Translations under genes and position numbers: made by a program | NCBI GenBank assembly: GCA_039197915.1 | Contig: JBCCTV010000001.1 | Span: forward strand, 5,140-69,139 | From: Pseudomonadota bacterium | GTDB taxonomy: Bacteria > Pseudomonadota > Alphaproteobacteria > Caulobacterales > Parvularculaceae | Reading direction: 5' to 3' | Length of the DNA: 64,000 nucleotides | Shown: positions 792 through 26,959 of the stretch, one piece after another | Position numbering within the stretch: position 1 is the stretch's first letter | How the letters are laid out: each line of letters opens with the position of its first letter | The notes under the pieces: generated by a model | What the model was told of the DNA's origin: nothing | Databases searched by the model: none | The model's input: the letters and a program-made list of their open reading frames with translations, nothing else

Positions 792-1376
792 CTAATTGGT
801 GAAGAATTCCACCTGGTCGATAAACTGTTTGGCCGGCGCTTCTTTAACGAAGATCGCGATATCGCTCGCCGCGAAGCCAGCGTCCATTAAGGACTTACGC
901 GCTTGCAACAATCGATAATAGGCGATGCGCTGCTTTTTTGTGTATGCGGATGATTTTCCATCGAAATAGGACGTTATAACGATTTCTTTACCAACCAATT
1001 TATCGCGATTGTCGTCAAAGTAGCCAGCGACCTCGCCCAACGCTCCCTCATCGATCGTGGTTGCGTCAGCCTTAAAAGTAAGGACCAGGCGGTCATCTGC
1101 GGCTTTTACCGCCTCAACACCGGTCTTGACCTCTTTTGTCTCGGGCGCATCGACTGTTACTTCGCGGGTTTGAATTGTCGTCGTTGATTTTTCCGTAGGC
1201 GTATTTTCAACGACAATTTTGACAATGTTTAGTGACATCGCAAAAATAGCGATCGCAAGAATGATCAACAAAAACGTCACAACCATGACGATCGTCGACA
1301 ACGCGTCGACGAAGCCCGGCCAATGGTTTTCTTCTTGTTGTTGCGCTTTCGCCACGACGCTCGCTTCAACACCCAT
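792..1376 (-). CDS. MotB/SiiA-like single-pass membrane protein (stator B-subunit-like) with a degenerate OmpA-like C-terminal half
   Basis: 194 aa. The N-terminus HWPGFVD24ALSTIVMVVTFLLIILAIAIF resembles the MotB plug/TM signature (E. coli ..YAD32FMTAMMAFFLV..), with the Asp conserved at the TM entry. The C-terminal segment (VITSYFDGKSSAYTKKQRIAYYRLLQARKSLMDAGFAASDIAIFVKEA) resembles an OmpA/MotB C-terminal fold. Confidence 0.6.
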   Translation of the reverse strand: MGVEASVVAKAQQQEENHWPGFVDALSTIVMVVTFLLIILAIAIFAMSLNIVKIVVENTPTEKSTTTIQTREVTVDAPETKEVKTGVEAVKAADDRLVLTFKADATTIDEGALGEVAGYFDDNRDKLVGKEIVITSYFDGKSSAYTKKQRIAYYRLLQARKSLMDAGFAASDIAIFVKEAPAKQFIDQVEFFTN

Positions 1377-2989: not shown

Positions 2990-3472
2990 ATGATGAAACG
3001 TTTCGCAACGCGCATGCAGCAAGCCCTAGCGCCAGCGCGTAAACTTTCAAGCTACCGCCGTCGGCGCACGGACCTTGAGGCGCGCACGGTGCAGCGCCAG
3101 CGCAAAGCCCTCGTCCGGGATGAAAAACGCAACCAACACAAACGCGCCGAACAGCGCGTGGACATCTTTGCGCTCGCAGAGATCGCCCTGCCGGATCGCA
3201 ATTTCTCCCTCGACGGCGTTATAATCGACGCCTCCCCTGGAGGACTTTCCTTCCGGCCGTCGACGCAATTCATTGAAGACCTGACCGGCGAGCCAGTAAA
3301 ACTCCTGATCGAAGGCGTCGCCAAAAATGGCGTCATCCGCGCCACCCGTCCCAATGGGTATGGCGTTCAACTGACGCGCGGCTTCTCCACCGGCGAACTC
3401 GCATTGCTCAGAGATTTATCCGTAGACGTTGAAGACGAACGCACGGCGAAAGCGGCGTTGCTGGCCGAGTAG
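2990..3472 (+). CDS. PilZ-domain protein (predicted c-di-GMP receptor)
   Basis: 160 aa. Contains RAEQR (residues 52-56), 23 intervening residues, then DASPGG (80-85). This matches the canonical PilZ RxxxR...(D/N)xSxxG c-di-GMP site (nt 3143-3244). The ATG lies 1 nt after the MotA-like TGA (..TGAtATGATG..), suggesting translational coupling. Confidence 0.7.
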   Translation: MMKRFATRMQQALAPARKLSSYRRRRTDLEARTVQRQRKALVRDEKRNQHKRAEQRVDIFALAEIALPDRNFSLDGVIIDASPGGLSFRPSTQFIEDLTGEPVKLLIEGVAKNGVIRATRPNGYGVQLTRGFSTGELALLRDLSVDVEDERTAKAALLAE

Positions 3473-3643: not shown

Positions 3644-6600
3644 TTAAGCGACGGCGACCGTCAGTTCAGCGATCGTTGTGCTAAAGCCGTCTTCGAACGT
3701 ATAAAGCATGGACGACATATCGCCCGACGATGTCGCGGCGCCGACCACATTCACTTCGCTCACATCATCGACGAGCACCGTCAACGCGTTCCCTGAGTCC
3801 GTAACCGATTGCACGTCGGTTACATCCAACGTGAAGTCGGCTGTCAGGTTAGGTCCGCGCACGTCGATAATCTCAATGTCGGTCAAGATATCGAAGAGAC
3901 CGAGGTCGCTGACAATGCTTGGCGTTGGGCTTTCAAGGTCAACCGTGTCCGTATCAGCGCCGCCGTTGATTTGCGCGTTGGTGAGGTCAATCAGTCCAGT
4001 GTCAATGATGAACCGGTCATCGCCGCCTTCGCCAAGGGCGATATCGGCGCCGCCATTGGTGTCAATGATGTCGTCATTTGCTCCGCCCTCGAACCGGTTA
4101 GCGTCGCCGTCGCCCACAAGGGTGTCGTTGCCGTCGCCGCCCCGGAGCGTGTCGCCGCCTACGGCTGTGAGGCTATCATTGCCGCCAAGGCCCTCTAACA
4201 GGTTCGCATTGCCGTCCCCCGTTAGCGTGTCGCCGGCGGTGTTGGAGCCGATTACATTCTCAAAGCCTGCAATCGTGTCGCCAGCCGCATCGCCGCCGCT
4301 CGCGCTGTTCGTGCCAAGATTAATAGTCACACCGCCCGTCGAGGCCGCGTAGTCGAGCGTGTCAATCTCGCCGCCCCCGTCAAGGTCGTCAGCATCAGCG
4401 CCGCCGCGCACCGTGTCATTGCCCCCTTCGCCCCGAAGCGTGTCCCCGCCGGAACCGCCCTCAAGAACGTCAGCGCCCCCGCCGCCTGCCAAGCTGTTCG
4501 CAAGGCCAGACCCCGTCAGCGTGTCATTCCCAGAACCGCCTAGCGCGTTCTCAATCGCAATCAGCGTATCCCCAAGCGAGGACGTCTCGCCGCCAAGATC
4601 AATATCAACCCCTGAGCCAACGCTCGAGTAATCAACCGTGTCAATCTGGCCGCCGCCATCAAGCGAATCACCGCCGCCAGCGTCAGCGACAAGCGTGTCA
4701 GCCCCAAGGCCGCCAATGAGCGTATCAACACCGCCGAGACCCGTCAGACGGTCGGCCCCGGAGCCGCCCTCAATCCGGTTATTGGCTGACGAGCCCACAA
4801 GCGTGTCGTTGCCCGTGCCAGAAACAATGTTCTCAATAGACGTCAGCGTATCCCCGAGGGACGTCACGCCCGTCCCAAGGTCAACATCAAGGTCCCCGCT
4901 CTCGCTGCCATAGTCGACCGTGTCGTCATTCGCCCCGCCGTCAAGAAGGTCCCCGTCAGCGCCGCCGCGAAGCGTGTCGTTACCGCCTTCGCCCCGAAGC
5001 GTGTCAGAGCCCGCATCCCCTTCAAGGATGTCCCCGTCAGCACCGCCAAGCAAACTATCAAGGCCGCCGCCGCCAACAAGACTGTCCGCGCCCCCGCCCC
5101 CTTCGAGCGTGTTCGCATTGCCGTCCCCCGTTAGCGTGTCGGCAAAGTTCGACCCCCGGAGGTTTTCAATTTCGTTGAACGTGTCGCCGCTCGCATGGCC
5201 GACGGTTCCGCCGCCTGCAGCCAGGCTAGCATCGACAGGGCCCGTGGCGTTCTCGTAACTCGCCCAATCAATACCGCCGCCGCCATCGAGCGTATCGGCG
5301 TCGTCTCCGCCGACTAACGTATCCGCGCCTTCACCGCCGAAAAGCGCTTGGGCCGTCGGTGTACCGAAGATTAAATCATCGGCATCGCCGCCGATGACCG
5401 TGTCGACGCCAGAGAGCACATCGCCTTGCGCATGGCCGCCGGATGACGCGGTTCCGTCGAGGCGGATGACGAGATTGACCCCGGTTGGAGAGCCTGAATA
5501 GTCGACGGTATCGTCGCCCGTTCCGCCCTCAATTGTGTCAGCGCCTGCTGACGCGTTGATGAGGTCGTTGCCGCCGCCCGCATTAATGTTGTTGCCGCCG
5601 GCGCTGCCGGTGATTGTGTCATTGGCGCTTGAGCCGATGACATTCTCGATGCTGACGAGTGAATCGTTGCCATCGGCCCCGGTCGCCGTTTGGGCGTCGA
5701 GGTCAATCGTTACCGCGCCGCTCGCGTTAGCGTAGCTTGCCGTATCGAGCCCGCCCCCGCCGTCGATCGTATCCGCCCCGCCCCGGCCTTCGAGAACGTC
5801 CGCCGCCTCTCCGCCTTCGAGGATGTTTTCGTTATCATCACCGACGAGGGTGTCGAAGTTGTTTGATCCCCGGAGGTTTTCAACGCCGTTAAAGACGTCC
5901 CCCGCCGCGTCGCCTACGGTGCCGCCGCCCGCAAAGAGCGAGGCGACAACGCTTCCGCCTGCGGATGAATAATCCGCCGTGTCGTTACCGCCGCCGCCGA
6001 TCAAACTGTCAGCGCCGGCGCCGCCGACGAGAACGTCATCTAAAGCGCCGCCGTCCAGCGTCTGTGCGCCGCCAATACCGATGAGGCTGTCGTTAAAGTT
6101 CGAACCGGTCAGTCTTTCGATGCCGCTGACAATATCGCCCTGGGCATGGCCGCCAGATGAAGCGGTCCCGTCGAGGCGAACCGTGACGCCGTCATTTGAT
6201 CCGACATAGGTTAGGCTGTCGATCTCGGTTCCGCCGTCAATCGTATCGGCGCCAACGGAGCTTGTGAACGCATCGGCGCCGCCGCGGCCCTCAAGTCTGT
6301 TATTTTCAGTATTACCGGCAAGGGTATCGTTCTGGGCCGTACCGATAATCGCCTCGATGCTGACAAGTGTGTCGTTTGTTGCGTCGCCGCCGGTTGCGGT
6401 GTTCGCGCCGAGGTCCACATTGATTGCTGACCCTGAACCCGAATAATCAACCGTATCGAGACCACTGCCGCCATCAATATCATCGCCATCAGCGCCGCCG
6501 CTGATCAAGTCATCATCATCGCCGCCGCGCAAGGTGTTGGCCCCGGCGCCGCCAATAATCGTGTCCATGCCACGACCGCCATCGATGTCATCCGCATCGG

Positions 6601-9600
6601 CGCCGCCGTCGATGTTGTCATCTTCATCGCCGCCGGTGATCGTGTCGCTGCCGATGCCGCCGGTTATAAGGTCAGCCCCCTGACCACCGGCAATATTGTC
6701 GGCGCCGGCGCCCCCTTCGATCGTATCGGCGTCGCGGCCGCCGTCTAGGTTATCGTCGCCGTCGCCGCCGATCAGCGTGTCAAACCCGTCAAATCCGCGC
6801 AGGGTGTTTTCTAGGGTGTCGCCAACGAGGTTGTCATTGAAATCAGAACCGTCGATGCCTTCGATGCCAAAGAAACGGTCGCCCGCAGCATCACCGCCGG
6901 CGCCGGTCGCGCCTTCGGATAGGGTAATAGAAACGCCGCTGCCGCTCGATTGGAAGTCGACGATGTCGTCGCCCGCGCCGCCTCGATATTCGTCAGCGTT
7001 GGCGCCCGCGCCGCCGTCGAGAATATCATCGCCGTCGCCGCCCTCGAGCGTGTTGGAGGCGGTCGAGCCGCGCAGGGTATCGCCAAGGGTCGAGCCGATC
7101 AGGTTTTCAATACCGGATAAATCATCGCCCGCCGCCGTACCAAAGCGCTCAATATTGCCGGCGATGTCGATCTCAACGCCAGCGCCTGAGTCGCTGTAAT
7201 CCGCCGTATCAATACCCGCGCCGCCGACCAAGACATCGCTGCCGGCGCCGCCTTGCAGGGTGTCGTCGCCATCGCGGCCTTCAAGGCGATTATTCGCCCC
7301 ATTGCCGGTGATGTTATCGCCTAGCGATGTTCCGTATACCCGCTCAATACCGCGCAGGGTGTCCGTATCAACGCCGCTGACGCCAGTTTCTGCAACGAGG
7401 TCCACAATGACCGCAAGCGACAGCGATCCGTAGTCGATATCGTCAAAGGAGCCTGTCCCGCCGTCGATGAAATCGCTGCCGAGGTCGCCTTGGAAATCGT
7501 CGTTGTTGGCGCCGCCGATGAGGCTGTCGTCGCCTTCACCGCCGAAGATGTCGTCGTCGCCGGACCCGCCTAGGATCGTGTCATTCCCCTCGTCGCCAAA
7601 GAGTTGGTCATTTGAGTTGCCGCCGTCGATGCTGTCATTGTCAGCGCCGCCACGAATGATGTCCAAGCCCTCGCCGCCGATAATCTCGTCGTCGCCAGCA
7701 TCCCCTTGCAGGGAGTCATTATCGGCGCCGCCGTTAATCGTGTCATTGCCCTCGCCGCCGATGACCGTGTCATTTTCGTCACCAGCGGAAATGTCATCGT
7801 CACCTTCACCGCCGTCAATGGTGTCGCTGCCTTCGCCGCTGGTGATGATATCGTTATCGAGACCGCCTTCGATCAAGTCGTTGTTCCGGTCACCAACAAT
7901 CGTATCGTCGCCAGCGTCGCCGAAGAGTTGGTTCAGGCCTTCGCCGCCGATAATTGAGTCGTTGCCGGTATTGCCGCGGATCGTGTCATTGCCTTGCCCG
8001 CCGGTCAGCGTGTTTTCGCCGACCGTCCCTAGGAGCGAGTCAGAGCCCGATGAGCCGACAGCGCTCTCGATACTGACGAGCGTGTCGCCCTCGGCTTCGC
8101 CGCCGAGGCCAAATTCATTCTGTAGATCGACCGTTACGCCAACGCCTGAGTTGGAGTAGGTGACAACATCATCGCCAATACCGCCGTCGATGGAATCAGC
8201 GCCGCCAAAGCCGCGGAAGATGTCGTCGCCATCGCCGCCAATGAGCGTTTCAACACCGCCGGTGCCGGACAGTTGGTCGCTTTCGTCTGAACCAATGAGC
8301 ACTTCAATGTCGAACAGGCGGTCGCCGGCGGCGAACCCGCCAGAGCCCGTTGTCCCATTGAGGAAGGCGATCACGCCAGTGGTTGAATTACTATAATCGA
8401 CCGTATCGGTATCTTCGCCTCCTTCAAGGCGCTCTGTCCCGATGTTGCCGAAGAGCGTGTCATCGCCGTCTTGGCCGAAGAGGCTGTCATTGCCCTCGCC
8501 GCCATCGATGACGTCTGCGCCTTCGCCGCCGAAAATGCGGTTTGCGGCGGTATTGCCATCTAGCGTGTCGTCATTATCGGACCCACGCAGATCCTCGATA
8601 CTGGAATAGGTGTCGCCTAAGGCTTCGCCGGTGTTCAGGGCGGCGTTTGCGAGGTTCACAACAAGTCCGGGTCCGGCGTTTTGGTAATCGGCCATATCGC
8701 GACCCGCGCCGCCCTCAAGGGTGTCGGCCTCACCGCCGCCCTCAAGGGTGTCGTTTCCGCCGCCGCCTGTGAGCACATTCGCCAGCGCATCGCCGACGAT
8801 CGTGTCTGCCGCTTCGGAACCGATCACGTTTTCAACGTCGATAATCGTATCGTCAGCGGCGTCGCCGGCGAAGCCGCGTTCTTGGCTAAGGTCGACGCTG
8901 ACGCCAATGGTCAGCCCACTGTAGTCGACAACGTCAATATCATCGCCGCCATCGAGCGTGTCGCCATTGGCGCCGCCGATCAGCGTGTCATTGCCAAGGC
9001 CGCCTTCTAGCGAATTCTCAAAGCCGTCGCCAACAAGTCGGTCAGCGCCAGAGCCGCCGATAATACCTTCTATATTCGTATAGGTATCGCCTTCCGCAGC
9101 GCCGCCGGTGCCGACGCCGCCGAGCGTTGCGGTAATATCGACGGTCTCGGCCGAATAATCGACGATGTCGAAATTATCGCCGCCGTCGAGGGAATCTGCG
9201 CCCGTCCCGGTGAAGAATATATCGGCGCCGAGGCCGCCGAGGAGCGTGTCAACGCCTGCGCCGCCATCGAGCGTATCATTGCCGGCGCCGCCGTCGAGGC
9301 TGTCATTGTCACCGGCGCCGAGGAGGCTGTCATTGTCATCCCCGCCGAGGAGCGTGTCCGCGCCAGCCGCCCCTGTGAGCGTGTCATTGCCGGCCATACC
9401 CCGCAGTTCGTTGCCGGCCGCCGAGGTCGTTAGGCTATCGTCGAAACCTGAGCCTTCGAGAATTTCAATATCCGTAAACGTATCACCGGCAGCGTCGTCA
9501 TTGGCGCCGACAGCGCCAACAGCGAGAGACGCCGTAACGCCTGAACCCGCCGTGCGGTAGGTCGCAACGTCAATGCCTTCACCGCCGTCAAGGGCGTCGG

Positions 9601-15600: not shown

Positions 15601-18600
15601 AGGAAAGCGTGTCGCTCTCGCTGCCGCCATCGAGCGTGTCTGCGCCAGCCCCGCCTTCAATGGTGTCCGCGCCGCCGGCGCCTTGGATGTTGTTGACGAA
15701 ATTGTCGCCGACTAAGCTGTCGCCATTGCCGGAGCCAATGATATTCTCAATACTGATGAACTGGTCGCCATCAGCGTCGCCGTCAAACCCAGCGCCGCTT
15801 GAGAGGAACACACGGACGGCGCTTGATCCGGTGTAATCGACCGTATCAATACCAATGTCGCCGTCCAAACGGTCAGCGCCAGCGCCCCCGATCAAGGTAT
15901 CCGCGCCTTCGCCGCCTTCCAGCGTATCAACGCCGGCGTCGCCGATGAGGCTGTCTGCGCCGCCGTCGCCGGTCAGAAGGTCGGCGCCGTCGTTGCCGCG
16001 CAAGGTGTCCGCCGATGCGCCGCCGATGAGCGTGTTGTTGGTGTCGTCGCCGGTGAGGGTGTCGCTAAAGGCCGACCCGATCACGCCTTCAATGTTGGCG
16101 AGCGTATCGTTATCGGCGTGGCCGCCAGACCAGGTTGATAAGAGCAGGTTGATGTCGACCCCGGCGTTGCTGCTTTCATAGCTCGCCAGGTCATCGCCGC
16201 CTTCGCCGTCAATATTGTCGCCGCCGGCGCCGCCCTCGAGGACGTCATTTTCGCCGCCGCCGGTGAGCACATCCCCATTGGCGCCGCCGCGCAGGGTGTC
16301 GGCCCCGCCGCCGCCGGCAAGATTATTCGCCTCAAGATTACCAACGACGCTATCAGCGCCGCCAGAACCGATGACGTTTTCGATTTCTGAATAGGTGTCG
16401 CCCGCAGCGTCGCCGCCCAAACCAACGCCGGTGCTCAGATTAACTGATACCGCGCCGCCGGACGCTCCGTAGTCTGCTGTATCAACGCCGCCCCCGCCGG
16501 AGAGGAAGTCAGCGCCAGCGAGGCCCGCAAGAATGTCGTTATCGCCGCCGCCTGCAAGGGTATTGCTTTCATCGTCACCGGTCAGCGTGTCTGCGTTTGC
16601 AGAGCCGGTCAGGTTTTCGATGCTACTAAAAGTGTCGCCGGCAGCCGAGCCAAACTGCGCCACATTCGTTGTCAGGTTCACATTCACGCCGACGCTGCTG
16701 TCGGCGTAACTGGCCGTATCCTGACCACCGCCGCCGATCAATTCGTCGCCGTCAGCGCCGCCCTGGAGAATGTCGTTCTGGGAGCCGCCGTCGAGGGTGT
16801 CCGCCCCCCCGCCGCCGATCAAGGTATCAACGCCCGCAAGGCCGGTTAGGATATTCGCGTCGCCATCGCCCGTTAGCACATCTTCTTGCAGCGAGCCTTC
16901 GATGTTTTCGATTTCGATCAGGACATCGCCGTCGGCGTCGCCGCCGCTCGTAAAGCCAGGGCCGCTGATATCAACCGTGACGCCGCCGCCGGAATTCCGG
17001 TAGGTGACCGTGTCATTGTCCGCACCACCGTCAATCGTATCCGCGCCAGCCCCGCCTTCGATCAGGTCCGCCCCTTGGCCGCCGCTCAAATTGTTCAGGG
17101 AAATGGTGCCGATCAGCGTATCATTGCCGTCCGACCCAATCGCGTTCTCTATGCTGACATATTCGTCGCCCTCGGCGAAGCCGCCAAGGCCGAAGCCGTT
17201 TTGCAAATCAACAAAGACCGCCGCGCCCGAACCGCTATAATCAACCGTGTCAAAGGCAGAACCGCCATCGAGGCTGTCGGCGCCCAGGCTGCCGACCAAT
17301 GTATCGGATCCCGCTTCGCCAAATATCGTGTCATTGCCGCCAGCGCCGTCGAGGCTGTCGTTACCGCCGCGCCCTTGGAGCACGTTTTCTTCCGAATCGC
17401 CGATGATCGTATCGTTGAAGTTTGACCCGATCGCGTTCTCGATATTGGAAAATGTATCGCCAGTGGCGTGACCGCCTGTCGCCGCATCGTTTTCAATATC
17501 GACAGAGACGGCCGCGTCGGACGTTTCATAGCTGACCGTATCAATGCCGCCGCCGCCATCGGTAACGTCTGCGCCTTCGCCGCCGATAAGCGTGTCTGCG
17601 TTTTCACCGCCGAGAAGCGTGTCATCTTCAGCGCCGCCCGACAATAAATCAGCGCCGTCGTTCCCTGTGAGGACGTTTTGCTCAGAATCGCCAATCAGCG
17701 TATCGCTTGAGTTTGAGCCCTGAACATTTTCAATTGAATCAAACGTATCAAATTGCGCATCGCCGCCGACGCCGACGCGTGCCTGCAAATTGACATTTAC
17801 GCCGACCCCGGAGCTTCGATAATCAACGAGGTCGACGCCGTCGCCGCCCACCAGGCTGTCCGCCCCGCCGAGGCCAATGAGCGTGTCGTTACTGTCGCCG
17901 CCCGACAACGTATTGTTTTCATTGTCACCCGTCAGCGTGTCGCTAAAGTCTGAGCCGATGACGCCTTCGATGTCGATATATTCATCGAGCGCGGCCGCGC
18001 CAAACTGGCCAACAGAGTTTAGGAGATCGACGTTTACGCCGACGCCTGAGTCCGTGTAGCTCGCGATATCAATGCCGAGCGAGCCGTCCAGGGTGTCGGC
18101 GCCGAGCCCGCCGGTCAGCGTATTTTCGCCAAGCCCGCCGATGAGCGAGTCCGCGCCGCCGCGGCCAAAGATCAAATCGTCGCTGGCCCCGCCATCAATG
18201 CGGTTGCCAGTATTATCCCCATAGAGAGTATCCCGGAATGCTGACCCGGTGAGATTTTCAATGCTGTCTAAAGTATCGCCGTTGGCGTGGCCGCCTGTAT
18301 TTGTATTGTTCAGGAGGTCAATATTCACCGATGCGTTTGACCCGGCATAGCTCGCCGTATCAAGGCCGTCGCCGCCAACGATCGAATCGCCCGCTGCCCC
18401 GCCTTCAAGAATGTCCGCGCCGTCGCCACCGGTCAAAACATTGACGGCGCCGTTGCCGATCAACGTATCGCCAAGGGCTGAGCCCTCAACATTTTCGATC
18501 GAAATCAGGACGTCGTTTTGAGCGTCGCCGCCGAGCCCTGTCTCAGTCGCCAGGTTGACGTTCACGCCAACGAGGGAGCCTGTGTAATTGACCGTATCAG

Positions 18601-21600
18601 AACCAATACCGCCGTCGATGGTGTCTGCGGCCGCGCCACCTTCAAGGGAATCGTCGCCCTCACCGCCGGATAGGGTGTTCTCGTTTTCGTCACCGATCAG
18701 AAGATCGTTAAAGTCAGTACCGATCACGCCTTGAATGTTGACAAGCGTGTCGCCGTCGGCGTCGCCTCCAGAGGCGCTTTGGGCGTCGATATTGACAGTC
18801 ACCGCGAGGCCCGAACCCGCATAGCTGACAACGTTCTGACCGATGCCGCCGTCAAGACTATCGGCGCCCTGACCACCGCTTAAGGTATCGTCGCCGCCGC
18901 CGCCGAGGAGCGTATCATCGCCGCCGAGGCCTGAGAGCGTGTCGTCGCCGCCAGCGCCGTCGAGGATATCGCCGTCGGCGCCGTTGTCGCCGATCAACGT
19001 GTCGCCAACGTTTGAGCCCGTTACGTCTTCAATTGAGATCAAGACATCGCCGTCGGCGTCGCCGCCAACGCCCGTCAACAACGAAAGATCGACGCTGACG
19101 CCCGCGTTTGACGTTATATAGCTGACGGCGTCACGGCCTTCGCCGCCGTCCAAGGTGTCGGCGCTCGCACCGCCGACGAGCGTGTCTTCGCCGTCGCCGC
19201 CGAGCAGACTATCCGCGCCGAAAGCGCCATCGAGGCTATCATTGCCGTCGCCGCCTTCGAGCACATTAGAGCGCACGTCGCCGAAGATATTGTCGTTGAA
19301 ATCACTGCCGCGAATATTTTCGATATTCGTCAGCGTGTCCCCATCGGCGTCGCCGCCAAGGCCGATATTGTTGGCCAGATCAACTGTGATCGCGGTTTCA
19401 CTGTCAGAATAATCAGCAAGGTCTAACCCCGCGCCGCCGTCCAGAACATCAGCACCGAGAAGACCGATCAAGGTGTCGTTACCAGCACCGCCGGTCAACG
19501 CATTGGCGTCGTCGGTGCCCCGCAAGCGGTCGGCCGAGCTCGTGCCAATAACGTTTTCTATATTTAGGAACGTGTCGCCGTCCGCGTCGCCGCCGGTTGC
19601 GGTCTGCAATTCGAGATTAACGTCGACCGCGACCGCCCCGCCTGAGTAATCAATCGTGTCGATGCCGGATCCGCCGTCGATCACGTCAGCGCCGGCGCCG
19701 CCGCGCAACTGGTCGGCGCCAGCCCCGCCGCTCAAGGTGTCGTCGCCGTCTTCACCAATAAGGGTATCGTCGCCGCCTTCGCCGCGCAGATCGTCGTCTG
19801 AAGCGTCGCCCACGAAGCGATCGTTAAAGGCCGATCCAACCAGCGCTTCTACGTCGAAAAACGTATCGCCATTGGCGTCGCCGCCGGAGCCGACGCCCGT
19901 GTTGAAATCGACAACAACGCCGCTGGCGGAACCCGCATAGCTTGCGATGTCAAAGCCCGCCCCGCCGGAAATCACATCAACGCCGGCGCCGCCTTCAAGC
20001 GAATCGTCGCCTTCGCCGCCGAAGAGTTGGTTGTTTTCACCGTCGCCGACGAGGGTGTCGTTGAAATCACTGCCGATGATGATCTCAAGATTGGCGTAGA
20101 CGTCGCCTGCTGCGTCGCCGCCGGCGCCAAAGCCTGTCGTGAGGTTTACATTGACGCCCACAACGCTTGCGGCGAAATCGACCGTGTCCACACCATCGCC
20201 GCCGTCGAGCGTATCGGCGCCACCGGCGCCCACAAGCGTATCGTTACCCTGGGCGCCGCGTAATTCATTCGCCTCGTCGTCGCCCAACAGGGTGTCGTTA
20301 AAGGCTGATCCCCCAACCCCTTCGATAGAGATCAGGGTGTCGCCGTTAGCGTCGCCGCCCGTCGCCAACTGAGCGGCCAGATCAACGCTTACCGCCGCGG
20401 ACGATGAGAAGTAATCCGTGCGATCGAGGCCAGCGCCCCCATCAAGTAAGTCTGCACCCTGACCACCTTCGAGACCATCGTCGCCAGCGCCGCCGCGCAG
20501 CGTATTCTCCCCGGCGTCGCCTTTTAGGGTGTCGTCAAACTGCGAACCGTCAATATTTTCAAATCCAGACAGCGTATCAACATCGCCGCCCTCAAGCCCC
20601 GCCGACGCCGTACCGGCGCCGAGATCCGCGTTTACGGCGGTCAACAGCGTACTGAAGTCTAGGACGTCAACGCCCACGCCGCCCGACAGGCTGTCGCTGC
20701 CGAGACCACCATCGATCGTGTCGTCGCCCACGCCGCCATCAAGGGTGTCAGAGCCTGCGGCCCCGCGCAAAATGTCCGAACCCGATCCACCGACAAAGCG
20801 ATTGTCGGCGCCGTCGCCAAGAAGCGTATCGTCGAAAGCGGAGCCCAGTATTTCTTCGATAGCAGTGACGACATCGCCATCGGCCTCGCCAGCAAAGCCA
20901 GCGCCGGCTGCAAGGTCCAGCCCTACCGCTGCGGTCGCCAGCGTGTAGTCGACAAGGTCAGACCCCTCGCCGCCATCGAGCGTGTCGGCCCCGCCCGCGC
21001 CGCCCAGGGTGTCGTCGCCGGCCCCGCCGAGGAGGCTGTTTGCGCCGCCATCGCCAACGATGAAATCATCAAAGGCGGATCCTTCGATGTTTTCTATATT
21101 AGTGAGCGTGTCGCCGGTGGCGTCGCCGCCTACAAAATCACCCGTACCGAGATTAATTGACACGGCTTCATCTGACCGTTGATAGCTCGCCGTGTCCAAA
21201 CCGCCGCCGCCGTCAATCTGGTCAGCGCCACCCAAGCCTTCGAAGAAATTTGCGCCCGCATCGCCGGTCAGGCTGTCGTTGAATTCAGAGCCGACAACGC
21301 CTTCGATCGACGTCAGCGCGTCTCCGTCCGCGTACCCGCCGGTGATTTCCCCGGCCACCAGGTTGATGCGCACGGGCGCATCCGAAAGCTCATAGGAGGC
21401 GATGTCGTCGCCTGCCCCGCCGTTGATTTGATCTGCGCCGATGCCAGCGACAATCGTATCGTCGCCGCCGCCTGCTGAGATGGTATTACCGGGCGGGTTT
21501 ACTGGGAGTACGACCACCTGGTCGCCCGTTAGCGCATCCACGAAGACCATGTCTTCTGGCGAGTCGACGATCGCCTGGACGACCTGGGTGCTCGCCGTGG

Positions 21601-22699
21601 TCGTACCGATATTTCCGTTGGCGTCGACCACGTCATACTGGACGGTCAGAACGGTAGAGCTAAAAAACCCGTTGGCGTCAGGCTCGCCCGTGGCGTCCGC
21701 CACCACATATTGAATTTGTGCATTCAATAGGAACGGGTTTTCCGGGTCCGCGACAAAGCTATAGCTGCCGTCGCCGCCCTCGCCGTTTAGGACGGTCCAG
21801 CCCTCTGGCAGGCCGGTAATTGTGGCTTGGGTCGGAACAAATCCTTCAAAGGGGATCTCAACAGAAATCTCAAACAGCCTAGTTGTTGAGCCCGTTGGCG
21901 CAAGGTCCGGAGAATCGGCAAAAATCAGATCCGAACCTTCCGTGCCGGAAACGCTCTCAACCGCGCTTTGGGCGGCGAAGCTATCGTTCGTATCGGCAGG
22001 TTCTTCTGCGGCGCCCCCTTCGATCCGCGCGCCGCCTCCCGGCAAAGCTTCGACCGATTGCGCCGTAACGCCGAGCAAGCGGACCGTGATATCTGAAACG
22101 CCAAGATCAAAGACGCTCTCATTATCTTCCGTCTGGGACGAGGGGCCAGCGGCCGCTTCGTTCGAGCGGAAGCGATTGCTAAATTGCGCGAGGTTCTCTT
22201 CAATCCGGGAGCTGATGTCCTGGCGGTCGCTGCTGCCTTTTTCAGGATCAATAAAGTCGAGCTCGGCCGCTTTTGGGGCTTCAACCTCGACGATTACCTC
22301 CGAAACAGATTGGTCCTGCGCCGACCCATCTTTATCTTCAGAACCCTGCTTTTCACCTGAGGTAAAAGTGACCTCGACGACTTCCGTCGCCTCGATTTCG
22401 CCGATACGAGCCAGCAGCTCCTGGGCGGAAAGGCCTTGCGTGCCGAACTGCAGGTAGAGGTCGTCGTCGGTAACGAGATCAAGTCCAGCGCCGAGCAAAA
22501 TGACCTGGGACCCGTCCGGAAACTTGATGATGATGTCGACGTCGACGACTTCGATTTTGACGTCTTCGATCTCGAACCCGAACTGCGCGTCGCGACCCTC
22601 TAGGCGATAGGCTTTGGTCTCGCCAGCCGCAGGCTTGTCGATACGCACAGAAGGCTTGTCGGTCGCCTCGTTTTCGGGAGTTGGCGTCGTTTCAGACAT
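3644..22699 (-). CDS. Giant RTX (repeats-in-toxin) calcium-binding T1SS substrate, 6351 aa
   Basis: One uninterrupted ORF of 19,056 nt. It contains hundreds of GGxGxDxUx nonapeptides. A non-RTX N-terminal region spans ~410 aa. The non-RTX acidic/hydrophobic C-terminus (...LYTFEDGFSTTIAELTVAVA) is typical of uncleaved T1SS secretion signals. HlyD, TolC and ABC genes are adjacent. Confidence 0.95.
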   Translation of the reverse strand: MSETTPTPENEATDKPSVRIDKPAAGETKAYRLEGRDAQFGFEIEDVKIEVVDVDIIIKFPDGSQVILLGAGLDLVTDDDLYLQFGTQGLSAQELLARIGEIEATEVVEVTFTSGEKQGSEDKDGSAQDQSVSEVIVEVEAPKAAELDFIDPEKGSSDRQDISSRIEENLAQFSNRFRSNEAAAGPSSQTEDNESVFDLGVSDITVRLLGVTAQSVEALPGGGARIEGGAAEEPADTNDSFAAQSAVESVSGTEGSDLIFADSPDLAPTGSTTRLFEISVEIPFEGFVPTQATITGLPEGWTVLNGEGGDGSYSFVADPENPFLLNAQIQYVVADATGEPDANGFFSSTVLTVQYDVVDANGNIGTTTASTQVVQAIVDSPEDMVFVDALTGDQVVVLPVNPPGNTISAGGGDDTIVAGIGADQINGGAGDDIASYELSDAPVRINLVAGEITGGYADGDALTSIEGVVGSEFNDSLTGDAGANFFEGLGGADQIDGGGGLDTASYQRSDEAVSINLGTGDFVGGDATGDTLTNIENIEGSAFDDFIVGDGGANSLLGGAGDDTLGGAGGADTLDGGEGSDLVDYTLATAAVGLDLAAGAGFAGEADGDVVTAIEEILGSAFDDTLLGDGADNRFVGGSGSDILRGAAGSDTLDGGVGDDTIDGGLGSDSLSGGVGVDVLDFSTLLTAVNADLGAGTASAGLEGGDVDTLSGFENIDGSQFDDTLKGDAGENTLRGGAGDDGLEGGQGADLLDGGAGLDRTDYFSSSAAVSVDLAAQLATGGDANGDTLISIEGVGGSAFNDTLLGDDEANELRGAQGNDTLVGAGGADTLDGGDGVDTVDFAASVVGVNVNLTTGFGAGGDAAGDVYANLEIIIGSDFNDTLVGDGENNQLFGGEGDDSLEGGAGVDVISGGAGFDIASYAGSASGVVVDFNTGVGSGGDANGDTFFDVEALVGSAFNDRFVGDASDDDLRGEGGDDTLIGEDGDDTLSGGAGADQLRGGAGADVIDGGSGIDTIDYSGGAVAVDVNLELQTATGGDADGDTFLNIENVIGTSSADRLRGTDDANALTGGAGNDTLIGLLGADVLDGGAGLDLADYSDSETAITVDLANNIGLGGDADGDTLTNIENIRGSDFNDNIFGDVRSNVLEGGDGNDSLDGAFGADSLLGGDGEDTLVGGASADTLDGGEGRDAVSYITSNAGVSVDLSLLTGVGGDADGDVLISIEDVTGSNVGDTLIGDNGADGDILDGAGGDDTLSGLGGDDTLLGGGGDDTLSGGQGADSLDGGIGQNVVSYAGSGLAVTVNIDAQSASGGDADGDTLVNIQGVIGTDFNDLLIGDENENTLSGGEGDDSLEGGAAADTIDGGIGSDTVNYTGSLVGVNVNLATETGLGGDAQNDVLISIENVEGSALGDTLIGNGAVNVLTGGDGADILEGGAAGDSIVGGDGLDTASYAGSNASVNIDLLNNTNTGGHANGDTLDSIENLTGSAFRDTLYGDNTGNRIDGGASDDLIFGRGGADSLIGGLGENTLTGGLGADTLDGSLGIDIASYTDSGVGVNVDLLNSVGQFGAAALDEYIDIEGVIGSDFSDTLTGDNENNTLSGGDSNDTLIGLGGADSLVGGDGVDLVDYRSSGVGVNVNLQARVGVGGDAQFDTFDSIENVQGSNSSDTLIGDSEQNVLTGNDGADLLSGGAEDDTLLGGENADTLIGGEGADVTDGGGGIDTVSYETSDAAVSVDIENDAATGGHATGDTFSNIENAIGSNFNDTIIGDSEENVLQGRGGNDSLDGAGGNDTIFGEAGSDTLVGSLGADSLDGGSAFDTVDYSGSGAAVFVDLQNGFGLGGFAEGDEYVSIENAIGSDGNDTLIGTISLNNLSGGQGADLIEGGAGADTIDGGADNDTVTYRNSGGGVTVDISGPGFTSGGDADGDVLIEIENIEGSLQEDVLTGDGDANILTGLAGVDTLIGGGGADTLDGGSQNDILQGGADGDELIGGGGQDTASYADSSVGVNVNLTTNVAQFGSAAGDTFSSIENLTGSANADTLTGDDESNTLAGGGDNDILAGLAGADFLSGGGGVDTADYGASGGAVSVNLSTGVGLGGDAAGDTYSEIENVIGSGGADSVVGNLEANNLAGGGGADTLRGGANGDVLTGGGENDVLEGGAGGDNIDGEGGDDLASYESSNAGVDINLLLSTWSGGHADNDTLANIEGVIGSAFSDTLTGDDTNNTLIGGASADTLRGNDGADLLTGDGGADSLIGDAGVDTLEGGEGADTLIGGAGADRLDGDIGIDTVDYTGSSAVRVFLSSGAGFDGDADGDQFISIENIIGSGNGDSLVGDNFVNNIQGAGGADTIEGGAGADTLDGGSESDTLSYQGSASAVSVNLATGAVSGGDASGDIISGFENLRGSAGADTLIGDADDNVLEGLGSDDIFDGGGGADRLDGSSGVDTADYRLSGAGVSIDLELNTAAGGLAADDTLISIENILGSANADTITGDSLANRFEGGQGADALSGGGGADVLLGGGDNDTIEGGSGGDLLDGGGEEDTVTYAQSSQGVNVSLRTGAASGGDATGDTLTNFENLTGSAAGDTLEGSDTANDIFGGGGSDIILGAGGADSIDGEGGADTIEGGQGADTLIGGADTDTISYASSNAGVNVDLANNIASGGDAAGDVIDGFENIIGSGLDDTLTGDSLVNRIEAGDGEDFIVGGAGADQIIGGEGSDTASYAASNDRVVIDLENDTAAFGHAAGDDLDEIENLIGSGFNDELTGDAQRNALTGNAGQDTLDGGDENDTLDGGGDNDLLIGGSGADSLVGGGGIDAIDYSASFGAVQIDLAAGTGASNDAQGDTIEGVEQVIGSGFGDSLSGDSLGNTLIGGEGNDTLAGRAGADSLDGQGGDFDIADYSASTAVNIDLGAGTASGGDAAGDTLTSIEGAFGGAGNDTLVGSSAQNRLEGRGGDDILRGLGAADTLDGGEGVDTADYTGSVGGVTVNLVDGTGAGGDAQGDTLIDIENVTGTEAADLLIGNTRDNILIGAGGVDQLRGGGGADTLDGGADGDTLRGGEGGDSLIGDAGVDTAEYVGSTAGVNVNLDANTASGGDADGDTLTGIENLLGSGLSDTLTGDSLDNRLEGAGGADTLSGLDGNDTLDGGGEADTADYSASTAAVTANLASNAASGADIGNDSLVSIENIIGGDGADTLRGQSGANRLEGGDNADELRGEGGNDTLLGQEGADLIFGGEGQDSIDGGEGDDTASYAGSTAVDIDLAAGTGTFGDADGDTLAGIERVIGSGENDTIAGDSLSNTLEGGGGADQLIGREGGDTLLGNAGEDTLEGGAGADSLNGGGGVNTAVYTGGADGIQIDLALGTGLGGDAQGDTLTNIQNVLGSDGDDLLAGDGGANELFGDLGADTLIGGAGADSLDGGGNIDLADYSGSTSGVVLSLLSGLGTNGDALGDTLTEIENVTGSEQNDQITGDGEANVIRGLGGGDVLTGLGGDDEIRAGAGADTLAGGSGADTLDGGEGFDIVDYSASADPVSVNLGTGVVSGGDADGDVLISIEEVIATTGNDTLIGNSLGNELRGGDGDDSLVGGAGNDTIFGEGGNDTLVGEAGADILDGGGDNDFVSYESAGGAVSVFLDTGRAIDDGGAQDTLTDIENVLGSGFNDAIRGNLEANILSGGGGADTIFGFEGVDQISGGGDNDVLRGGADGDIIDGGGGIDTADYTASGAVRVDLSDNLQNAFGDAQGDVLTQIENIIGSGGNDTLTGDSLDNSLDGSAGADLLAGGEGADTLFGNSGTDTATYAASDDAVTINLGGNTASGGHADGDVLTEIENLIGSDFADQLTGDSLDNSLAGGDENDTLIGGAGADTLNGGGGDDWVDYALSAAVNVDLTGGGIGGDAQNDVYTDIENAAGSESNDTLSANAGTNVLLGRGGDDILSGGIGSDTLEGGANADTLIGGSAGDSLDGGDGLDTASYEGAAAAVSVNLATGVATGGDAADDTLTSIENLIGGNNNDTLIGDSLANRLDGSASNDLLEGGEGADTLVGGDGIDTADYSNSAAGVNVQLTIGNFGAGGDAAGDRLELIENIIGSGSTDTLIGDGNINRLQGGGDNDLLIGGAGADSLEGDSGIDTARYTGSAGAVNINLETGAGLGGDAEGDFLDSIEILEGSNTGDTLIAANTGSTLRGEGGGDILTGGTVADLLEGGAGIDTLRGGLGADTLDGGGTLNDVADYANSTADLVIDLSNNANNAGAEAAGDILTNIEFVIGGEGADTIVGNGARNDLSGGQDDDVLRGGADADTLRGGAGSNTASYEGSGAVSVNLDTGVHFGNDATGDVLIDIQNLIGSSNGDDLTGDDNVNSIDGGDGADTLEGAGGADALDGGEGIDVATYRTAGSGVTASLAVGAVGANDDAAGDTFTDIEILEGSGFDDSLTTSAAGNELRGMAGNDTLTGAAGADTLLGGDDNDSLLGAGDNDSLDGGAGNDTLDGGAGVDTLLGGLGADIFFTGTGADSLDGGDNFDIVDYSAETVDITATLGGVGTGGAAEGDTYTNIEGIIGGSGADRLVGDGFENSLEGGLGNDTLIGGANGDTLDGGDDIDVVDYSGLTIGVSVDLSQERGFAGDAADDTIIDVENVIGSEAADTIVGDALANVLTGGGGNDTLEGGGEADTLEGGAGRDMADYQNAGPGLVVNLANAALNTGEALGDTYSSIEDLRGSDNDDTLDGNTAANRIFGGEGADVIDGGEGNDSLFGQDGDDTLFGNIGTERLEGGEDTDTVDYSNSTTGVIAFLNGTTGSGGFAAGDRLFDIEVLIGSDESDQLSGTGGVETLIGGDGDDIFRGFGGADSIDGGIGDDVVTYSNSGVGVTVDLQNEFGLGGEAEGDTLVSIESAVGSSGSDSLLGTVGENTLTGGQGNDTIRGNTGNDSIIGGEGLNQLFGDAGDDTIVGDRNNDLIEGGLDNDIITSGEGSDTIDGGEGDDDISAGDENDTVIGGEGNDTINGGADNDSLQGDAGDDEIIGGEGLDIIRGGADNDSIDGGNSNDQLFGDEGNDTILGGSGDDDIFGGEGDDSLIGGANNDDFQGDLGSDFIDGGTGSFDDIDYGSLSLAVIVDLVAETGVSGVDTDTLRGIERVYGTSLGDNITGNGANNRLEGRDGDDTLQGGAGSDVLVGGAGIDTADYSDSGAGVEIDIAGNIERFGTAAGDDLSGIENLIGSTLGDTLRGSTASNTLEGGDGDDILDGGAGANADEYRGGAGDDIVDFQSSGSGVSITLSEGATGAGGDAAGDRFFGIEGIDGSDFNDNLVGDTLENTLRGFDGFDTLIGGDGDDNLDGGRDADTIEGGAGADNIAGGQGADLITGGIGSDTITGGDEDDNIDGGADADDIDGGRGMDTIIGGAGANTLRGGDDDDLISGGADGDDIDGGSGLDTVDYSGSGSAINVDLGANTATGGDATNDTLVSIEAIIGTAQNDTLAGNTENNRLEGRGGADAFTSSVGADTIDGGTEIDSLTYVGSNDGVTVRLDGTASSGGHAQGDIVSGIERLTGSNFNDSLIGIGGAQTLDGGALDDVLVGGAGADSLIGGGGNDTADYSSAGGSVVASLFAGGGTVGDAAGDVFNGVENLRGSNNFDTLVGDDNENILEGGEAADVLEGRGGADTIDGGGGLDTASYANASGAVTIDLDAQTATGADGNDSLVSIENVIGSSANDTITGSAGGNNINAGGGNDLINASAGADTIEGGTGDDTVDYSGSPTGVNLVIRLDGTASSGGHAQGDVLSGVDTVIGGDADDLIFGTPTAQALFGGEGADTLVGGDDADTLDGGGGIDWASYENATGPVDASLAAGGGTVGHASGDTFNEIENLRGSNFADTLTGDGNANTLEGGGGADSLVGGGGLDSLLGGADGDILEGDAGSDTLRGEGGNDTLRGGADGDLLDGGANDDTVDYGSESGDLDVDLGTGVTSLGDTLTSIENIVSGTGNDTLVGSSANNRIEGGSGADRLTGLGGVDTLIGGLGADTLVADAGGGDSLDGGGQIDTVDYSSVGSGVDIDLGGETSSLGDTLIAIENALGGSGNDTLTGSGLANSLAGGGGADVLEGGSGGDTLRGEGGNDTVRGGADADDLDGGGEIDTLDYAASTGGVTINLGTNSASGGDAAGDTIAGFENVIGSNTAGDTLTGDGNANLLEGLGGNDSLTAVGGDTLRGGDGNDTLVGDGDANRFEGGANDDIIDTNGGADIALGEGGDDRFIIDTGLIDLTNAQINGGADTDTVDLESPTPSIVSDLGLFDILTDIEIIDVRGPNLTADFTLDVTDVQSVTDSGNALTVLVDDVSEVNVVGAATSSGDMSSMLYTFEDGFSTTIAELTVAVA
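4000..21475 (-). repeat. Coding array of ~63 diverged composite RTX modules (70-190 aa each) inside the giant gene
   Basis: Manual parsing of the translation. Each module has three parts: (D/S)Y-x2-S-x3-V-x-V-x-L; then GGDAxGD(T/V)L-x2-IEN-x2-GS-x3-D-x-L-x-GD; then 3 to ~20 GGxGxD repeats. The modules are diverged at both amino-acid and nucleotide level, and I saw no long identical DNA repeats. Confidence 0.85.
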
Positions 22700-23168
22700 C
22701 TGCAGACTTTCAAAGCGCCTTTAAGCGCGCACACAACTCACCGCCGTGCAGACGCAATTCGCCCGCACACCGGCGCCACTATTTGGAATTTTTAAGATCT
22801 CGAAGTGAACAGGTGGTTTTGAAACATGGTGAACCATCCCTTTACGGATGCTCGAAAATTGCTTGTTTATTGGGGTTTGAGGGCCTTTCTCGTCATCCGG
22901 CGTTGGGCGCCCCAACGCTCGGCAACGACGAGCGGCGGTTAACGATAAGGGTAAGGATGATCTTCGCCTAAACACGCGTGAGCAGAGGGCGCGGGCCATG
23001 GGGTTGGGTTGAGGACGTTGGGTTGAGGAAGTGGACGCGGGGGCGCGGGGCCGCGCTCGTGCGACCACGGAAGGATCCTATGGCGCTCATCGGGACAATC
23101 GACGGCGGCCCTTGCGCCTTCGTCATCCGCAAAAAAAATCGCGGCATTTGATTAAAATACCCAACGCC

Positions 23169-26497: not shown

Positions 26498-26796
26498 AAA
26501 AAACCCGCGGCGTTTGCCAATCAGCACGCATAGAAAAACGCCATTAACCAATCCTTACTCACTCGCTCCTTAAAGATCGGTGCAACGACCAATTCTTTTG
26601 AGTTCGGCACGCCGTGCGCAAGCCTTATGGGATTGCGTCAAACTTTAGGGAAACGCTCCGCGATAGGCGCGCATATTGGTTTTGGATCGGGTCTTGTTGT
26701 GCAACGGGCATTGACGACAGTGAAAGAAAATATCGGCGCTCGGTTGCAGCGCGCAAAGAGGCCGACGCAGACCGCAGGGGCGGGTCCTGAGACGGG

Positions 26797-26832: not shown

Positions 26833-26871
26833 GGCTGGGAGAGGATCCGGGACGAGATCTGGGCCACCGCC

Positions 26872-26919: not shown

Positions 26920-26959
26920 CTCTGCAACGCGTCAAAACGGATTTCCGTTGCCAGCGGCC

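Follow-up and report, generated by a model that had tools for sequence, protein, structure and literature searches.

A giant alphaproteobacterial RTX protein built from 63 CyaA-type block-plus-linker modules and its candidate role as a stator-associated surface filament

INTRODUCTION

In CyaA, the repeats-in-toxin (RTX) blocks fold by templating from the C terminus toward the N terminus, and this folding serves as an export ratchet (PMC10511787, PMC6891781). As described by Goldsmith et al. (2021; PMC8486122), the linker between two CyaA blocks packs a Tyr or Phe at its N-terminal end into the core, contributes an additional antiparallel strand with a core Val, and carries an (I/V)EN motif whose Glu completes a Ca2+ site in the adjacent block. 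The linker motif introduces a kink while leaving the hydrophobic core uninterrupted, the direction of the kink is set by the face of the roll that enters the linker, and the same workers proposed a "linker array" as a synthetic design. A second point of reference is Salmonella pathogenicity island 4 (SPI-4), which encodes the only type I secretion system (T1SS) reported to use a MotAB-type motor. SiiA (ca. 210 aa) has a transmembrane Asp13 and a peptidoglycan-binding domain, and SiiB is MotA-like and ca. 460 aa long; the SiiAB pair conducts protons and is needed for adhesion via the 595-kDa protein SiiE, and signalling that interacts with SiiAB shifts SiiE between released and surface-retained states. 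A third is the class of RTX adhesins, defined by a retention module, tandem immunoglobulin-like (Ig-like) extenders and a ligand-binding region (bioRxiv 10.1101/2025.09.30.679566). In the current study, we analysed a stretch of 64,000 nucleotides from a Parvularculaceae bacterium (assembly GCA_039197915.1, contig JBCCTV010000001.1), referred to here as the window, in which a giant gene encoding an RTX protein lies beside T1SS genes and beside genes for a MotB-like, a MotA-like and a PilZ-domain protein (the trio).

We put at roughly 60% the probability that the giant protein is a surface filament or adhesin of the adjacent T1SS, in which 63 CyaA-type modules form a beta-roll stalk that is under the control of the stator-like pair and the PilZ protein. 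This interpretation rests on the anatomy of the sequence, homology with CyaA, a beta-roll model, conservation of the array and a conserved gene neighbourhood; from these we infer secretion, Ca2+-dependent folding, the geometry of the kinks, retention at the surface and the part played by the stator and PilZ proteins.

RESULTS

The array consists of 63 CyaA-type modules

A hidden Markov model (HMM) of the module, seeded with 59 segments anchored on the IEN motif and used with a threshold of >40 bits for a full module, found 63 full modules, the first at aa 430 to 491 and the last at aa 6111 to 6173. The number is exactly that which the first-pass annotation of this DNA had reached by hand (about 63). 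The module consensus, GxDTxxYxxSxxxVxVxLxxxxxxGGDAxGDTLxxIENxIGSxxxDTLxGDxxxNxLxGGxG followed by nonapeptides, joins a linker motif of the CyaA type (ca. 45 aa) to a short nonapeptide block. Behind the 62-aa core, the spacer amounts to about two nonapeptides in 33 modules and about four in 21, the others having 6, 8, 12 or 20. The most conserved positions other than Gly and Asp are the Tyr of column 7 (94% of modules), the Val of column 14 (91%), and the Ile (69%), Glu (84%) and Asn (56%) of columns 36 to 38; where column 7 is not Tyr, it is Phe in at least three modules (4, 6 and 54).

These features are those of the CyaA linker: the core Tyr or Phe and the (I/V)EN motif are both present in the sequence, and the homology extends to sequence and fold alike. 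When three modules were compared with solved structures by phmmer, the RTX domain of CyaA was the best match by a wide margin (7usl_C, E=5.8e-42; 7rah_E, 6.5e-25; 6sus_A, 3.7e-19), and the alignments pass through the CyaA interblock linkers (for example, along the stretch "...GVDTVDYS...ADL..."), with IEN aligned to "GIENV" and "NIENL" of CyaA. The buried Lys of CyaA linkers L1 to L3 has no counterpart in the array, whose sole Lys is K726; CyaA linker L4 also does without it. The module of the window is the CyaA block-plus-linker unit in minimal form. What the first-pass annotation had described as a composite module is, on the strength of the match to 7usl_C and of the linker features described for CyaA, a known one.

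The giant protein consists of 21.4% Gly and 14.3% Asp, and it has no Cys and 10 Lys, 9 of which lie within the first 154 aa. It contains 103 strict and 152 loose matches to the nonapeptide GGxGxDxUx, a 257-aa piece of it matches Pfam HemolysinCabind at E=2.2e-24, and its GxD-type turns, numbering between 208 and 310, make the earlier proposal that it binds hundreds of Ca2+ plausible on sequence grounds. No hydrophobic segment was found, the longest stretch free of Gly and Asp being 23 polar residues. The array begins where it had first been placed (aa ~409) but continues to aa ~6255 rather than ending near aa 5900; likewise, the estimate of ~410 non-RTX residues at the N terminus was sound (408 aa), while that of ~120 at the C terminus was too large (ca. 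96 aa). The reading frame is unbroken across all codons at 61% GC, and the choice of start codon is backed by "MSET/MSEN" N termini common to the orthologues described below.

Spacers change by whole beta-roll turns

The distance from one module to the next is most often 79 aa (21 times) or 97 aa (16 times), and periods of 115, 134, 170 and 242 aa also occur. Of 62 periods, 59 are within 2 residues of 79+18n and a single one falls on the half-turn series 79+9+18n (binomial P=2e-29), so that the spacers vary almost only by whole turns of the beta-roll. The same phase rule is followed by some related giants (P0003, P0004, P0006, P0009 and others) but not by all module-array proteins, and among 151 proteins compared, it is the window protein that has the strictest 18-residue phasing.

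Paralogous module cores are on average 43% and at most 64.5% identical. A higher-order repeat was considered and ruled out: core identity is flat, at 0.43 to 0.46, for module offsets from 1 to 15. The longest runs of canonical nonapeptides lie at aa 4904 to 5083 (nt ~7451-7990; ca. 20 repeats) and aa 5305 to 5412 (nt ~6464-6787; ca. 12 repeats), and both sit in the C-terminal quarter, the part expected to exit and fold first. Near the C-terminal cap the type of module changes; modules 61 and 62 (aa 5924 to 6075) have a shortened linker that is without the GGDAxGD turn ("...TSLGDTLTSIEN...").

The modules are predicted to form a continuous, kinked beta-roll

AlphaFold2 was run on three consecutive modules (aa 818 to 1103) with an alignment of nine paralogous triples. 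The model has a mean predicted local distance difference test score (pLDDT) of 96.0 and a predicted template modelling score (pTM) of 0.90, and pLDDT stays at or above 93 over the linkers. Unbroken three-residue strands recur every 9 residues, a rhythm that gives way within each linker to intervals of 11, 7, 10 and 6, and a 79-aa module has nine strands (eight of the roll plus one). Neither Ig-like domains nor low-confidence junctions are present in the three-module model, which supports a rigid, continuous beta-roll without hinges. The first-pass annotation had noted the lack of an Ig-like extender, and the predicted modules are indeed pure beta-roll; it had left the choice between a continuous and a segmented roll to be settled by such a prediction, which came out continuous. 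The hinged units that it had offered as one alternative find no place in a model with these scores, nor in CyaA, whose linkers preserve a continuous core.

A Foldseek search of the PDB with this model again placed CyaA on top (7usl_C, 7rah_E and 6sus, at E values of 6.5e-14, 3.3e-10 and 3.3e-5), with TM-scores between 0.29 and 0.54 (0.49/0.54 for 6sus). The straight beta-rolls of serralysins superpose over only ca. 100 to 130 residues (1.7 to 3.5 Å), and the straight solenoid 3p4g superposes poorly (TM-score, 0.24 to 0.31), which is consistent with kinks. Taken together with the CyaA structures, the model supports an array that is a rigid, continuous but kinked beta-roll, rather than a string of hinged beads or a straight rod. 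The ca. 645 strands of the array correspond to a contour length of ca. 150 nm, which is distinct from the end-to-end length; the straight 150-nm rod that had first been estimated is, given CyaA-type linkers, better read as this contour. Since spacers change by whole turns and the direction of a CyaA kink depends on the face of entry, the 63 kinks would be in register and would probably add up to a regular curve or superhelix, by analogy with CyaA.

An N-terminal domain defines an alphaproteobacterial family

In a database of 1.84 billion cluster representatives, the 79-aa module profile found 190,519 matches at E<=1e-3, of which 30,759 reached E<=1e-30; the best 150 include 71 proteins of 4000 aa or more and 13 of 6000 aa or more. 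The module-array architecture is thus common rather than rare, and its novelty had at first been overstated. The window protein nonetheless has the most full modules when these are recounted by HMM over the 151 proteins (63, followed by 58, 57, 47 and fewer). Such giants stand in the databases as "Ca2+-binding RTX toxin-like," "DUF642 domain-containing" or "cadherin domain-containing" proteins, and our literature searches found no published study of these alphaproteobacterial giants.

The N-terminal domain comprises a beta-rich head (aa ~17 to 97; motif KPxxG...FxF...DVDxxIxFxDGSxIxL), an acidic low-complexity linker (aa ~100 to 210) and a second beta-rich region (aa ~270 to 375). Its 408 aa have no match in Pfam, NCBIfam or PDB, and a profile of 10 sequences likewise found none in PDB or Pfam. 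A profile of 10 homologues did, however, find the domain in 28 of the top 150 module-array proteins, always at the N terminus and directly before the array, and a search of a 5.8-billion-protein set returned two fragments only. Judged from these sequence comparisons, the ca. 420-aa domain defines a family distributed over Sphingomonas, Methylobacterium, Chthonobacter and Parvularculaceae. Its relatives include proteins of Sphingomonas sp. annotated as "Ca2+-binding RTX toxin-like protein" (4720 to 7183 aa; MDR6116697.1 has 7183 aa), of Methylorubrum populi (WP_455973421.1; 6283 aa, named "DUF642 domain-containing protein"), of Methylobacterium organophilum (5240 to 5321 aa; WP_238311778.1 has 5240 aa) and of Chthonobacter albigriseus (WP_181699667.1; 4751 aa). 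For the N-terminal domain, the nearest relative in the databases is a 696-aa metagenomic fragment (P0001), in which three modules are followed by a nonhomologous Arg/Pro-rich tail, probably the result of a frameshift at the end of the contig.

At the other end of the chain, the C-terminal 96 aa are homologous to the C terminus of the family member P0020. A word-indexed search with the C-terminal 136 aa found no homologues, and a comparison of the last 191 aa with PDB matched the RTX part only. Presumably, the 96 aa contain a cap and the uncleaved T1SS signal, in the position that these occupy in other RTX proteins.

Orthologues point to an old array kept by selection

A scan of genome contigs identified three orthologous loci in metagenome-assembled genomes (MAGs), two of them labelled "Pseudomonadota bacterium" and one Parvularculaceae (L001 to L003). 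Their N-terminal domains are 53 to 54% identical to that of the window protein, and their frames are open over at least 3758 codons each, as far as the available DNA reaches. The order of module lengths (70, 79, 97, 79, 79, 79, 97, 79, 97, 97, 79, 79, 97, ...) is identical in the four proteins over ca. 31 modules, and an alignment of the four over ca. 3300 aa has 56 gap columns out of 3356, with identities of 56 to 75% (56 to 57% for the three orthologues against the window protein). The proportion of nonsynonymous differences (pN) is 0.17 to 0.33, against a saturated synonymous proportion (pS) of 0.60 to 0.83, and the array and the N-terminal domain are similar in this respect. These values support an array that is old and maintained by purifying selection, as the first-pass annotation had argued from the divergence of the modules. 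Where paralogues vary, identity between positional orthologues is 31%, compared with a background of 16%, which points to true positional orthology under weak module-specific constraint and would fit a scaffold.

The only DNA repeats in the gene are short 27-bp tandem repeats of 66 to 86% identity. Because the repeats are so short and diverged, the module cores no more than 64.5% identical and higher-order periodicity absent, collapse or expansion during assembly is unlikely. The relative from Sphingomonas sp. SORGH_AS_0950 (L005, 10001-31553) has been annotated as an overlapping pair of genes (4720 and 2516 aa), probably through a frameshift or sequencing error; the split is a warning against trusting database lengths in this family of giants.

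A trio of MotB-like, MotA-like and PilZ genes recurs beside the secretion genes

Three further genes of the window encode the trio (Table 1). The MotB-like protein has the sequence features of a MotB-type subunit of the MotAB/ExbBD/TolQR superfamily, namely, a transmembrane Asp and a domain of the peptidoglycan-binding type. In five homologues, W19, F22, V23 and D24 (WxxFVD, ahead of the transmembrane helix) and the motif RxAYYR are invariant, and Pfam OmpA matches four of the five (best E=5.3e-5). In the MotA-like protein, it is the block GLxGTFxGLM...PLxGMxxGFxxSLFGL, resembling TM3 and TM4, that is invariant. Homologues of both proteins occur in five loci of the N-terminal-domain family, L004 (M. 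populi), L005 (Sphingomonas), L006 (Chthonobacter), and L007 and L008 (metagenomic contigs), at E values of 1e-12 to 2e-18 for the MotB-like and 1e-46 to 8e-64 for the MotA-like protein, and in L009, a locus whose giant is without the family N-terminal domain (7e-13 and 2e-16, respectively). PilZ homologues stand directly behind the MotA-like gene in L004 to L008, where the operon runs from the ATP-binding cassette (ABC) gene through proteins of ca. 250, ca. 510 to 620 and ca. 110 to 136 aa, with the genes for the membrane fusion protein (MFP), TolC and the giant alongside. The trio thus adjoins T1SS genes in six of six family loci with a readable flank (the window and L004 to L008; the relevant flank of L001 to L003 is not readable).

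Two giants without the family N-terminal domain were also inspected. Beside the more distantly related P0005 (L009, 27941-37179) there are T1SS genes and the MotB/MotA-like pair, with HDOD and GGDEF-EAL proteins instead of PilZ, which would be a different cyclic di-GMP (c-di-GMP) module on the same theme; P0011 has neither T1SS genes nor the trio nearby.

TolC-like, HlyD-type and LssB-type ABC genes adjoin the giant gene, so that the protein combines a tandem of nonapeptides with linked ABC, MFP and TolC genes, two of the features by which RTX proteins are recognized (Linhartova et al. 2010); its earlier designation as a T1SS substrate is thereby strengthened. The same arrangement of T1SS genes is found at the orthologous locus L003, and the same gene set beside the relatives L004 to L008. 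The TolC-like and ABC proteins carry N-terminal extensions without a family match (ca. 220 aa ahead of the TolC profile and ca. 125 aa ahead of the LssB-type profile), and the sizes of the L003 proteins (645 and 763 aa) suggest that these extensions are conserved. Scans of the ends of the giant gene, including the gap at 22700-23168, found no promoter or terminator consensus. That gap holds a small open reading frame (ORF), and in M. populi an unannotated 104-aa ORF adjoins the TolC gene.

In M. populi (L004, 28875-30131) and in a MAG (L007, 25028-26272), the next gene downstream of the giant one encodes a glycosyltransferase (Glyco_trans_4_3 plus Glycos_transf_1), and in M. populi a polysaccharide-type cluster (MurJ, GT4, Wzy_C and a deacetylase) comes after it. 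The glycosyltransferase may serve glycosylation of the fibre or coproduction of matrix; the window has no equivalent of it beside the giant gene. Farther along the window, an inorganic-carbon pump (DabAB) together with a "marine subtype" ammonium transporter fits a marine chromosomal context.

Table 1. Positions and properties of the features of the window (nt, nucleotide positions within the window)
Feature	Position (nt)	Strand	Size	Properties
Giant gene	3644..22699	-	6351 aa, 615 kDa	One ORF; pI 4.05; net charge ca. -1078
N-terminal domain	21476..22699	-	aa 1-408	Non-RTX
RTX array	3935..21475	-	aa 409-6255	63 modules; ca. 92% of the chain
C-terminal part	3647..3934	-	96 aa	Non-RTX; ends ...TIAELTVAVA
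MotB/ExbD/SiiA-like	792..1376	-	194 aa	One N-terminal transmembrane helix, linker, OmpA-like C-terminal domain
MotA/ExbB/SiiB-like	1552..2988	+	478 aa	Transmembrane region aa ~120-235 (proton-channel type), long helical C-terminal tail
PilZ-domain protein	2990..3472	+	160 aa	Pfam PilZ E=5.3e-5, above cutoff; RAEQR (RxxxR), DASPGG (DxSxxG)
ORF without family match	22721..23068	-	115 aa	In the 470-bp gap between the TolC-like and giant genes
TolC-family outer-membrane channel	23169..25082	-	637 aa	Pfam OEP E=6.5e-45; TIGR01844 type_I_sec_TolC, residues 220-621
HlyD-family T1SS periplasmic adaptor	25163..26551	-	462 aa	TIGR01843 type_I_hlyD E=2.2e-109, above curated cutoff
T1SS ABC permease/ATPase	26627..29053	+ (divergent)	808 aa	TIGR03375 LssB-type E=4.7e-164, residues 127-804; Pfam ABC_membrane, ABC_tran
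DabB and DabA	32023..36123	+	527 aa and 828 aa	DabB NuoL-like; Pfam DabA E=1e-263; inorganic-carbon pump
Ammonium transporter	45284..46735	-		"Marine subtype"

DISCUSSION

How the giant protein might work can be pictured largely from CyaA. In the low-Ca2+ cytosol, the chain would be unfolded, and it would leave the cell C terminus first. Outside, folding would proceed from the C terminus toward the N terminus, with each module templating the next and thereby ratcheting export. The product would be a single continuous and rigid beta-roll with a few hundred Ca2+, curved or superhelical in shape. In a filament or adhesin retained at the surface, such an array would be the stalk, filling the role that bacterial Ig-like (BIg) repeats have in SiiE or LapA. 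The N-terminal domain, being the last part to leave the T1SS and co-occurring with the trio, would likely be the retained end, or the end that interacts with other components. Finally, the MotB/MotA-like proton-channel pair and the PilZ c-di-GMP receptor may control whether the filament is retained or released, or may put it under load; this suggestion stems from the conserved gene neighbourhood and from the analogy with SiiAB. As a comparison for the PilZ input, YcgR acts on MotA at the flagellum.

Several of our observations sit uneasily with this interpretation. The trio of the window is located on the 3' side of the giant gene, with its MotB-like gene oriented against the other two, whereas elsewhere the three form one operon after the ABC gene; in the orthologue L003, no trio is present in the 10 kb upstream, and ORFs upstream of the ABC gene there, which we considered as candidates, were found by BLASTP to be unrelated. 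Pfam OmpA does not match the window's own MotB-like copy. Pfam MotA_ExbB stays below its gathering score (E=1.3e-4 to 2.8e-4 in three of five homologues, with 2.8e-4 for the window), and comparisons of single sequences and profiles with PDB found no similarity to SiiA, MotB, MotA, ZorA or ExbB structures (E>=0.07). As regards the giant protein itself, neither a single sequence nor the 10-sequence profile matched a retention module in NCBIfam, Pfam or PDB, and the AlphaFold2 model of the N-terminal 430 aa, made with a three-sequence alignment, is unreliable (pLDDT, 39.6). The array model was made from an alignment of nine paralogous segments only, and the geometry of the kinks would follow from CyaA structures together with low TM-scores to straight solenoids.

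A real alternative, although we regard it as less likely, is that the giant is released freely and stays unanchored, whether as a self-assembling S-layer or matrix protein or as an extracellular Ca2+ buffer, and that the stator and PilZ proteins serve something else. RTX proteins of this kind are established: RsaA and Sll1951 are S-layer proteins (PMC3034196), and abundant RTX exoproteins occur in marine bacteria (Roseobacter; PMC3933643, PMC2953401). No retention module, LapG or LapD was detectable among the scanned ORFs of the window, and the free evolution of variable positions (31% against 16%) is what one would expect of a scaffold rather than of 63 specific binding sites. On the other hand, the presence of the trio beside the T1SS in all six readable family loci argues for control that is coupled to the envelope, as with SiiAB and SiiE, and the conservation of a 410-aa N-terminal domain, found together with the trio, suggests that the part of the chain which exits last takes part in a specific interaction.

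We think it improbable that the protein is a canonical adhesin of the LapA/MpIBP type, differing in its extender alone, in which a retention module plugs TolC and release is governed by LapG and LapD. With such adhesins it shares its giant size, its dedicated T1SS genes, a beta-roll at the C terminus and a beta-rich head at the N terminus. However, both the model and the module map are free of Ig-like extenders, the retention-module searches described above were negative, and neither LapG nor LapD was found among the scanned ORFs of the 64-kb window, although they could lie elsewhere in the genome. A di-alanine "PKAAE" that might have served as a LapG site was rejected, since P0002 does not conserve it.

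A pore-forming or multifunctional RTX toxin is very hard to credit: the repeats are homologous to those of CyaA, and relatives are named "RTX toxin-like," but there is neither a hydrophobic pore-forming segment nor an effector domain, the single Lys of the array leaves no acylation site, and no RtxC-type acyltransferase was found among the scanned window ORFs. Equally far-fetched is the notion that the gene arose through misassembly or is a pseudogene in decay. Although repetitive 19-kb genes are often misassembled and the SORGH_AS_0950 relative is called as two genes where a sister strain has a single protein of 7183 aa, the gene of the window is free of long or near-identical DNA repeats and has module cores of limited identity, its module-length order is collinear in three independent MAGs, and its 6351 codons are open at 61% GC and under purifying selection.

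If the filament interpretation is taken further, one can tentatively envisage an undescribed seven-gene system of Alphaproteobacteria, comprising TolC, MFP, ABC, MotB-like, MotA-like, PilZ and giant proteins, in which a proton-driven stator, gated by c-di-GMP via PilZ, retains, releases or mechanically loads a regularly kinked Ca2+ superhelix. The window would then hold the largest member sampled, and its fibre would be of a new extracellular class, with CyaA-type modules taking the place of Ig-like extenders, a combined claim that we consider speculative and more likely wrong than right. Were it true, the giant would represent a naturally occurring counterpart of the "linker array" of Goldsmith et al.

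The protein offers an extreme natural test of the C-to-N folding and "push-ratchet" model of export. That model was derived from CyaA with its five blocks, whereas the window protein would have to fold 63 of them in series, over ca. 5,850 residues with several hundred Ca2+ sites. The 18-residue phasing leads to a testable geometry, in which kinks in register amount to a superhelix, and to design rules for beta-roll materials. The conserved association of T1SS, MotAB-like and c-di-GMP genes would carry the SiiAB idea beyond SPI-4 to common Alphaproteobacteria of soil, plants and the sea, and the family provides a second, very different system in which to ask how a stator acts on a T1SS substrate. 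In addition, tens of thousands of database proteins carry the module under uninformative names, and a definition of the family would improve their annotation. The module was already known and its class is abundant; what is new here is the N-terminal-domain family and its association with the trio. We consider the 18-residue phase rule and the conserved association of stator and PilZ genes most worth following up.

We would class the giant as an extreme representative of an alphaproteobacterial family, itself unstudied, that is kin to multiblock RTX domains on the one hand and to SPI-4-like T1SSs on the other. Its relatives, the named giants of other Alphaproteobacteria, share with it the N-terminal domain, the periods of 79 and 97 aa, the short C terminus, the T1SS genes and the trio; the window protein differs from them in having the most modules, and some of them add cadherin or DUF642-like segments and a neighbouring glycosyltransferase. 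CyaA, the best match in both sequence and fold, has the same alternation of nonapeptide block and conserved linker along a continuous hydrophobic core, and Ca2+-driven, C-to-N templated folding coupled to T1SS export would be expected of the window protein too. However, CyaA has 5 blocks of 8 to 11 nonapeptides where the window protein has 63 modules of 2 to 4, and the linkers of the latter (ca. 45 aa) are without the long loops and the buried Lys of CyaA. The window protein is also without an adenylate cyclase and without a hydrophobic or acylated domain, and its array takes up ca. 92% of the chain rather than the C-terminal third.

Among giant T1SS adhesins, LapA, MpIBP and FrhA resemble the window protein in size and in their C-terminal beta-roll, and would also resemble it in Ca2+-dependent rigidity and in a surface control linked to c-di-GMP, but none of their defining parts was found in the window, and the c-di-GMP input would come through PilZ instead of LapD. 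Region IV of MpIBP (MpAFP; 3P4G) is likewise a long, unbroken, Ca2+-loaded beta-solenoid in a giant T1SS adhesin; unlike the array, it is straight, binds its Ca2+ in a single row and repeats every 19 residues without linker motifs. With SPI-4, the gene content agrees in kind: a dedicated T1SS with a single substrate of ca. 600 kDa, a MotB-like protein of ca. 200 aa and a MotA-like protein of ca. 460 to 480 aa. The two differ in that the SiiE stalk consists of 53 BIg domains instead of a beta-roll array, in that the window adds a PilZ protein and its MotB-like protein has no detectable similarity to the periplasmic domain of SiiA, and in their hosts, environmental Alphaproteobacteria in one case and an enteric pathogen in the other. 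By analogy, then, the locus of the window may be regarded as an SPI-4-like system with a beta-roll stalk.

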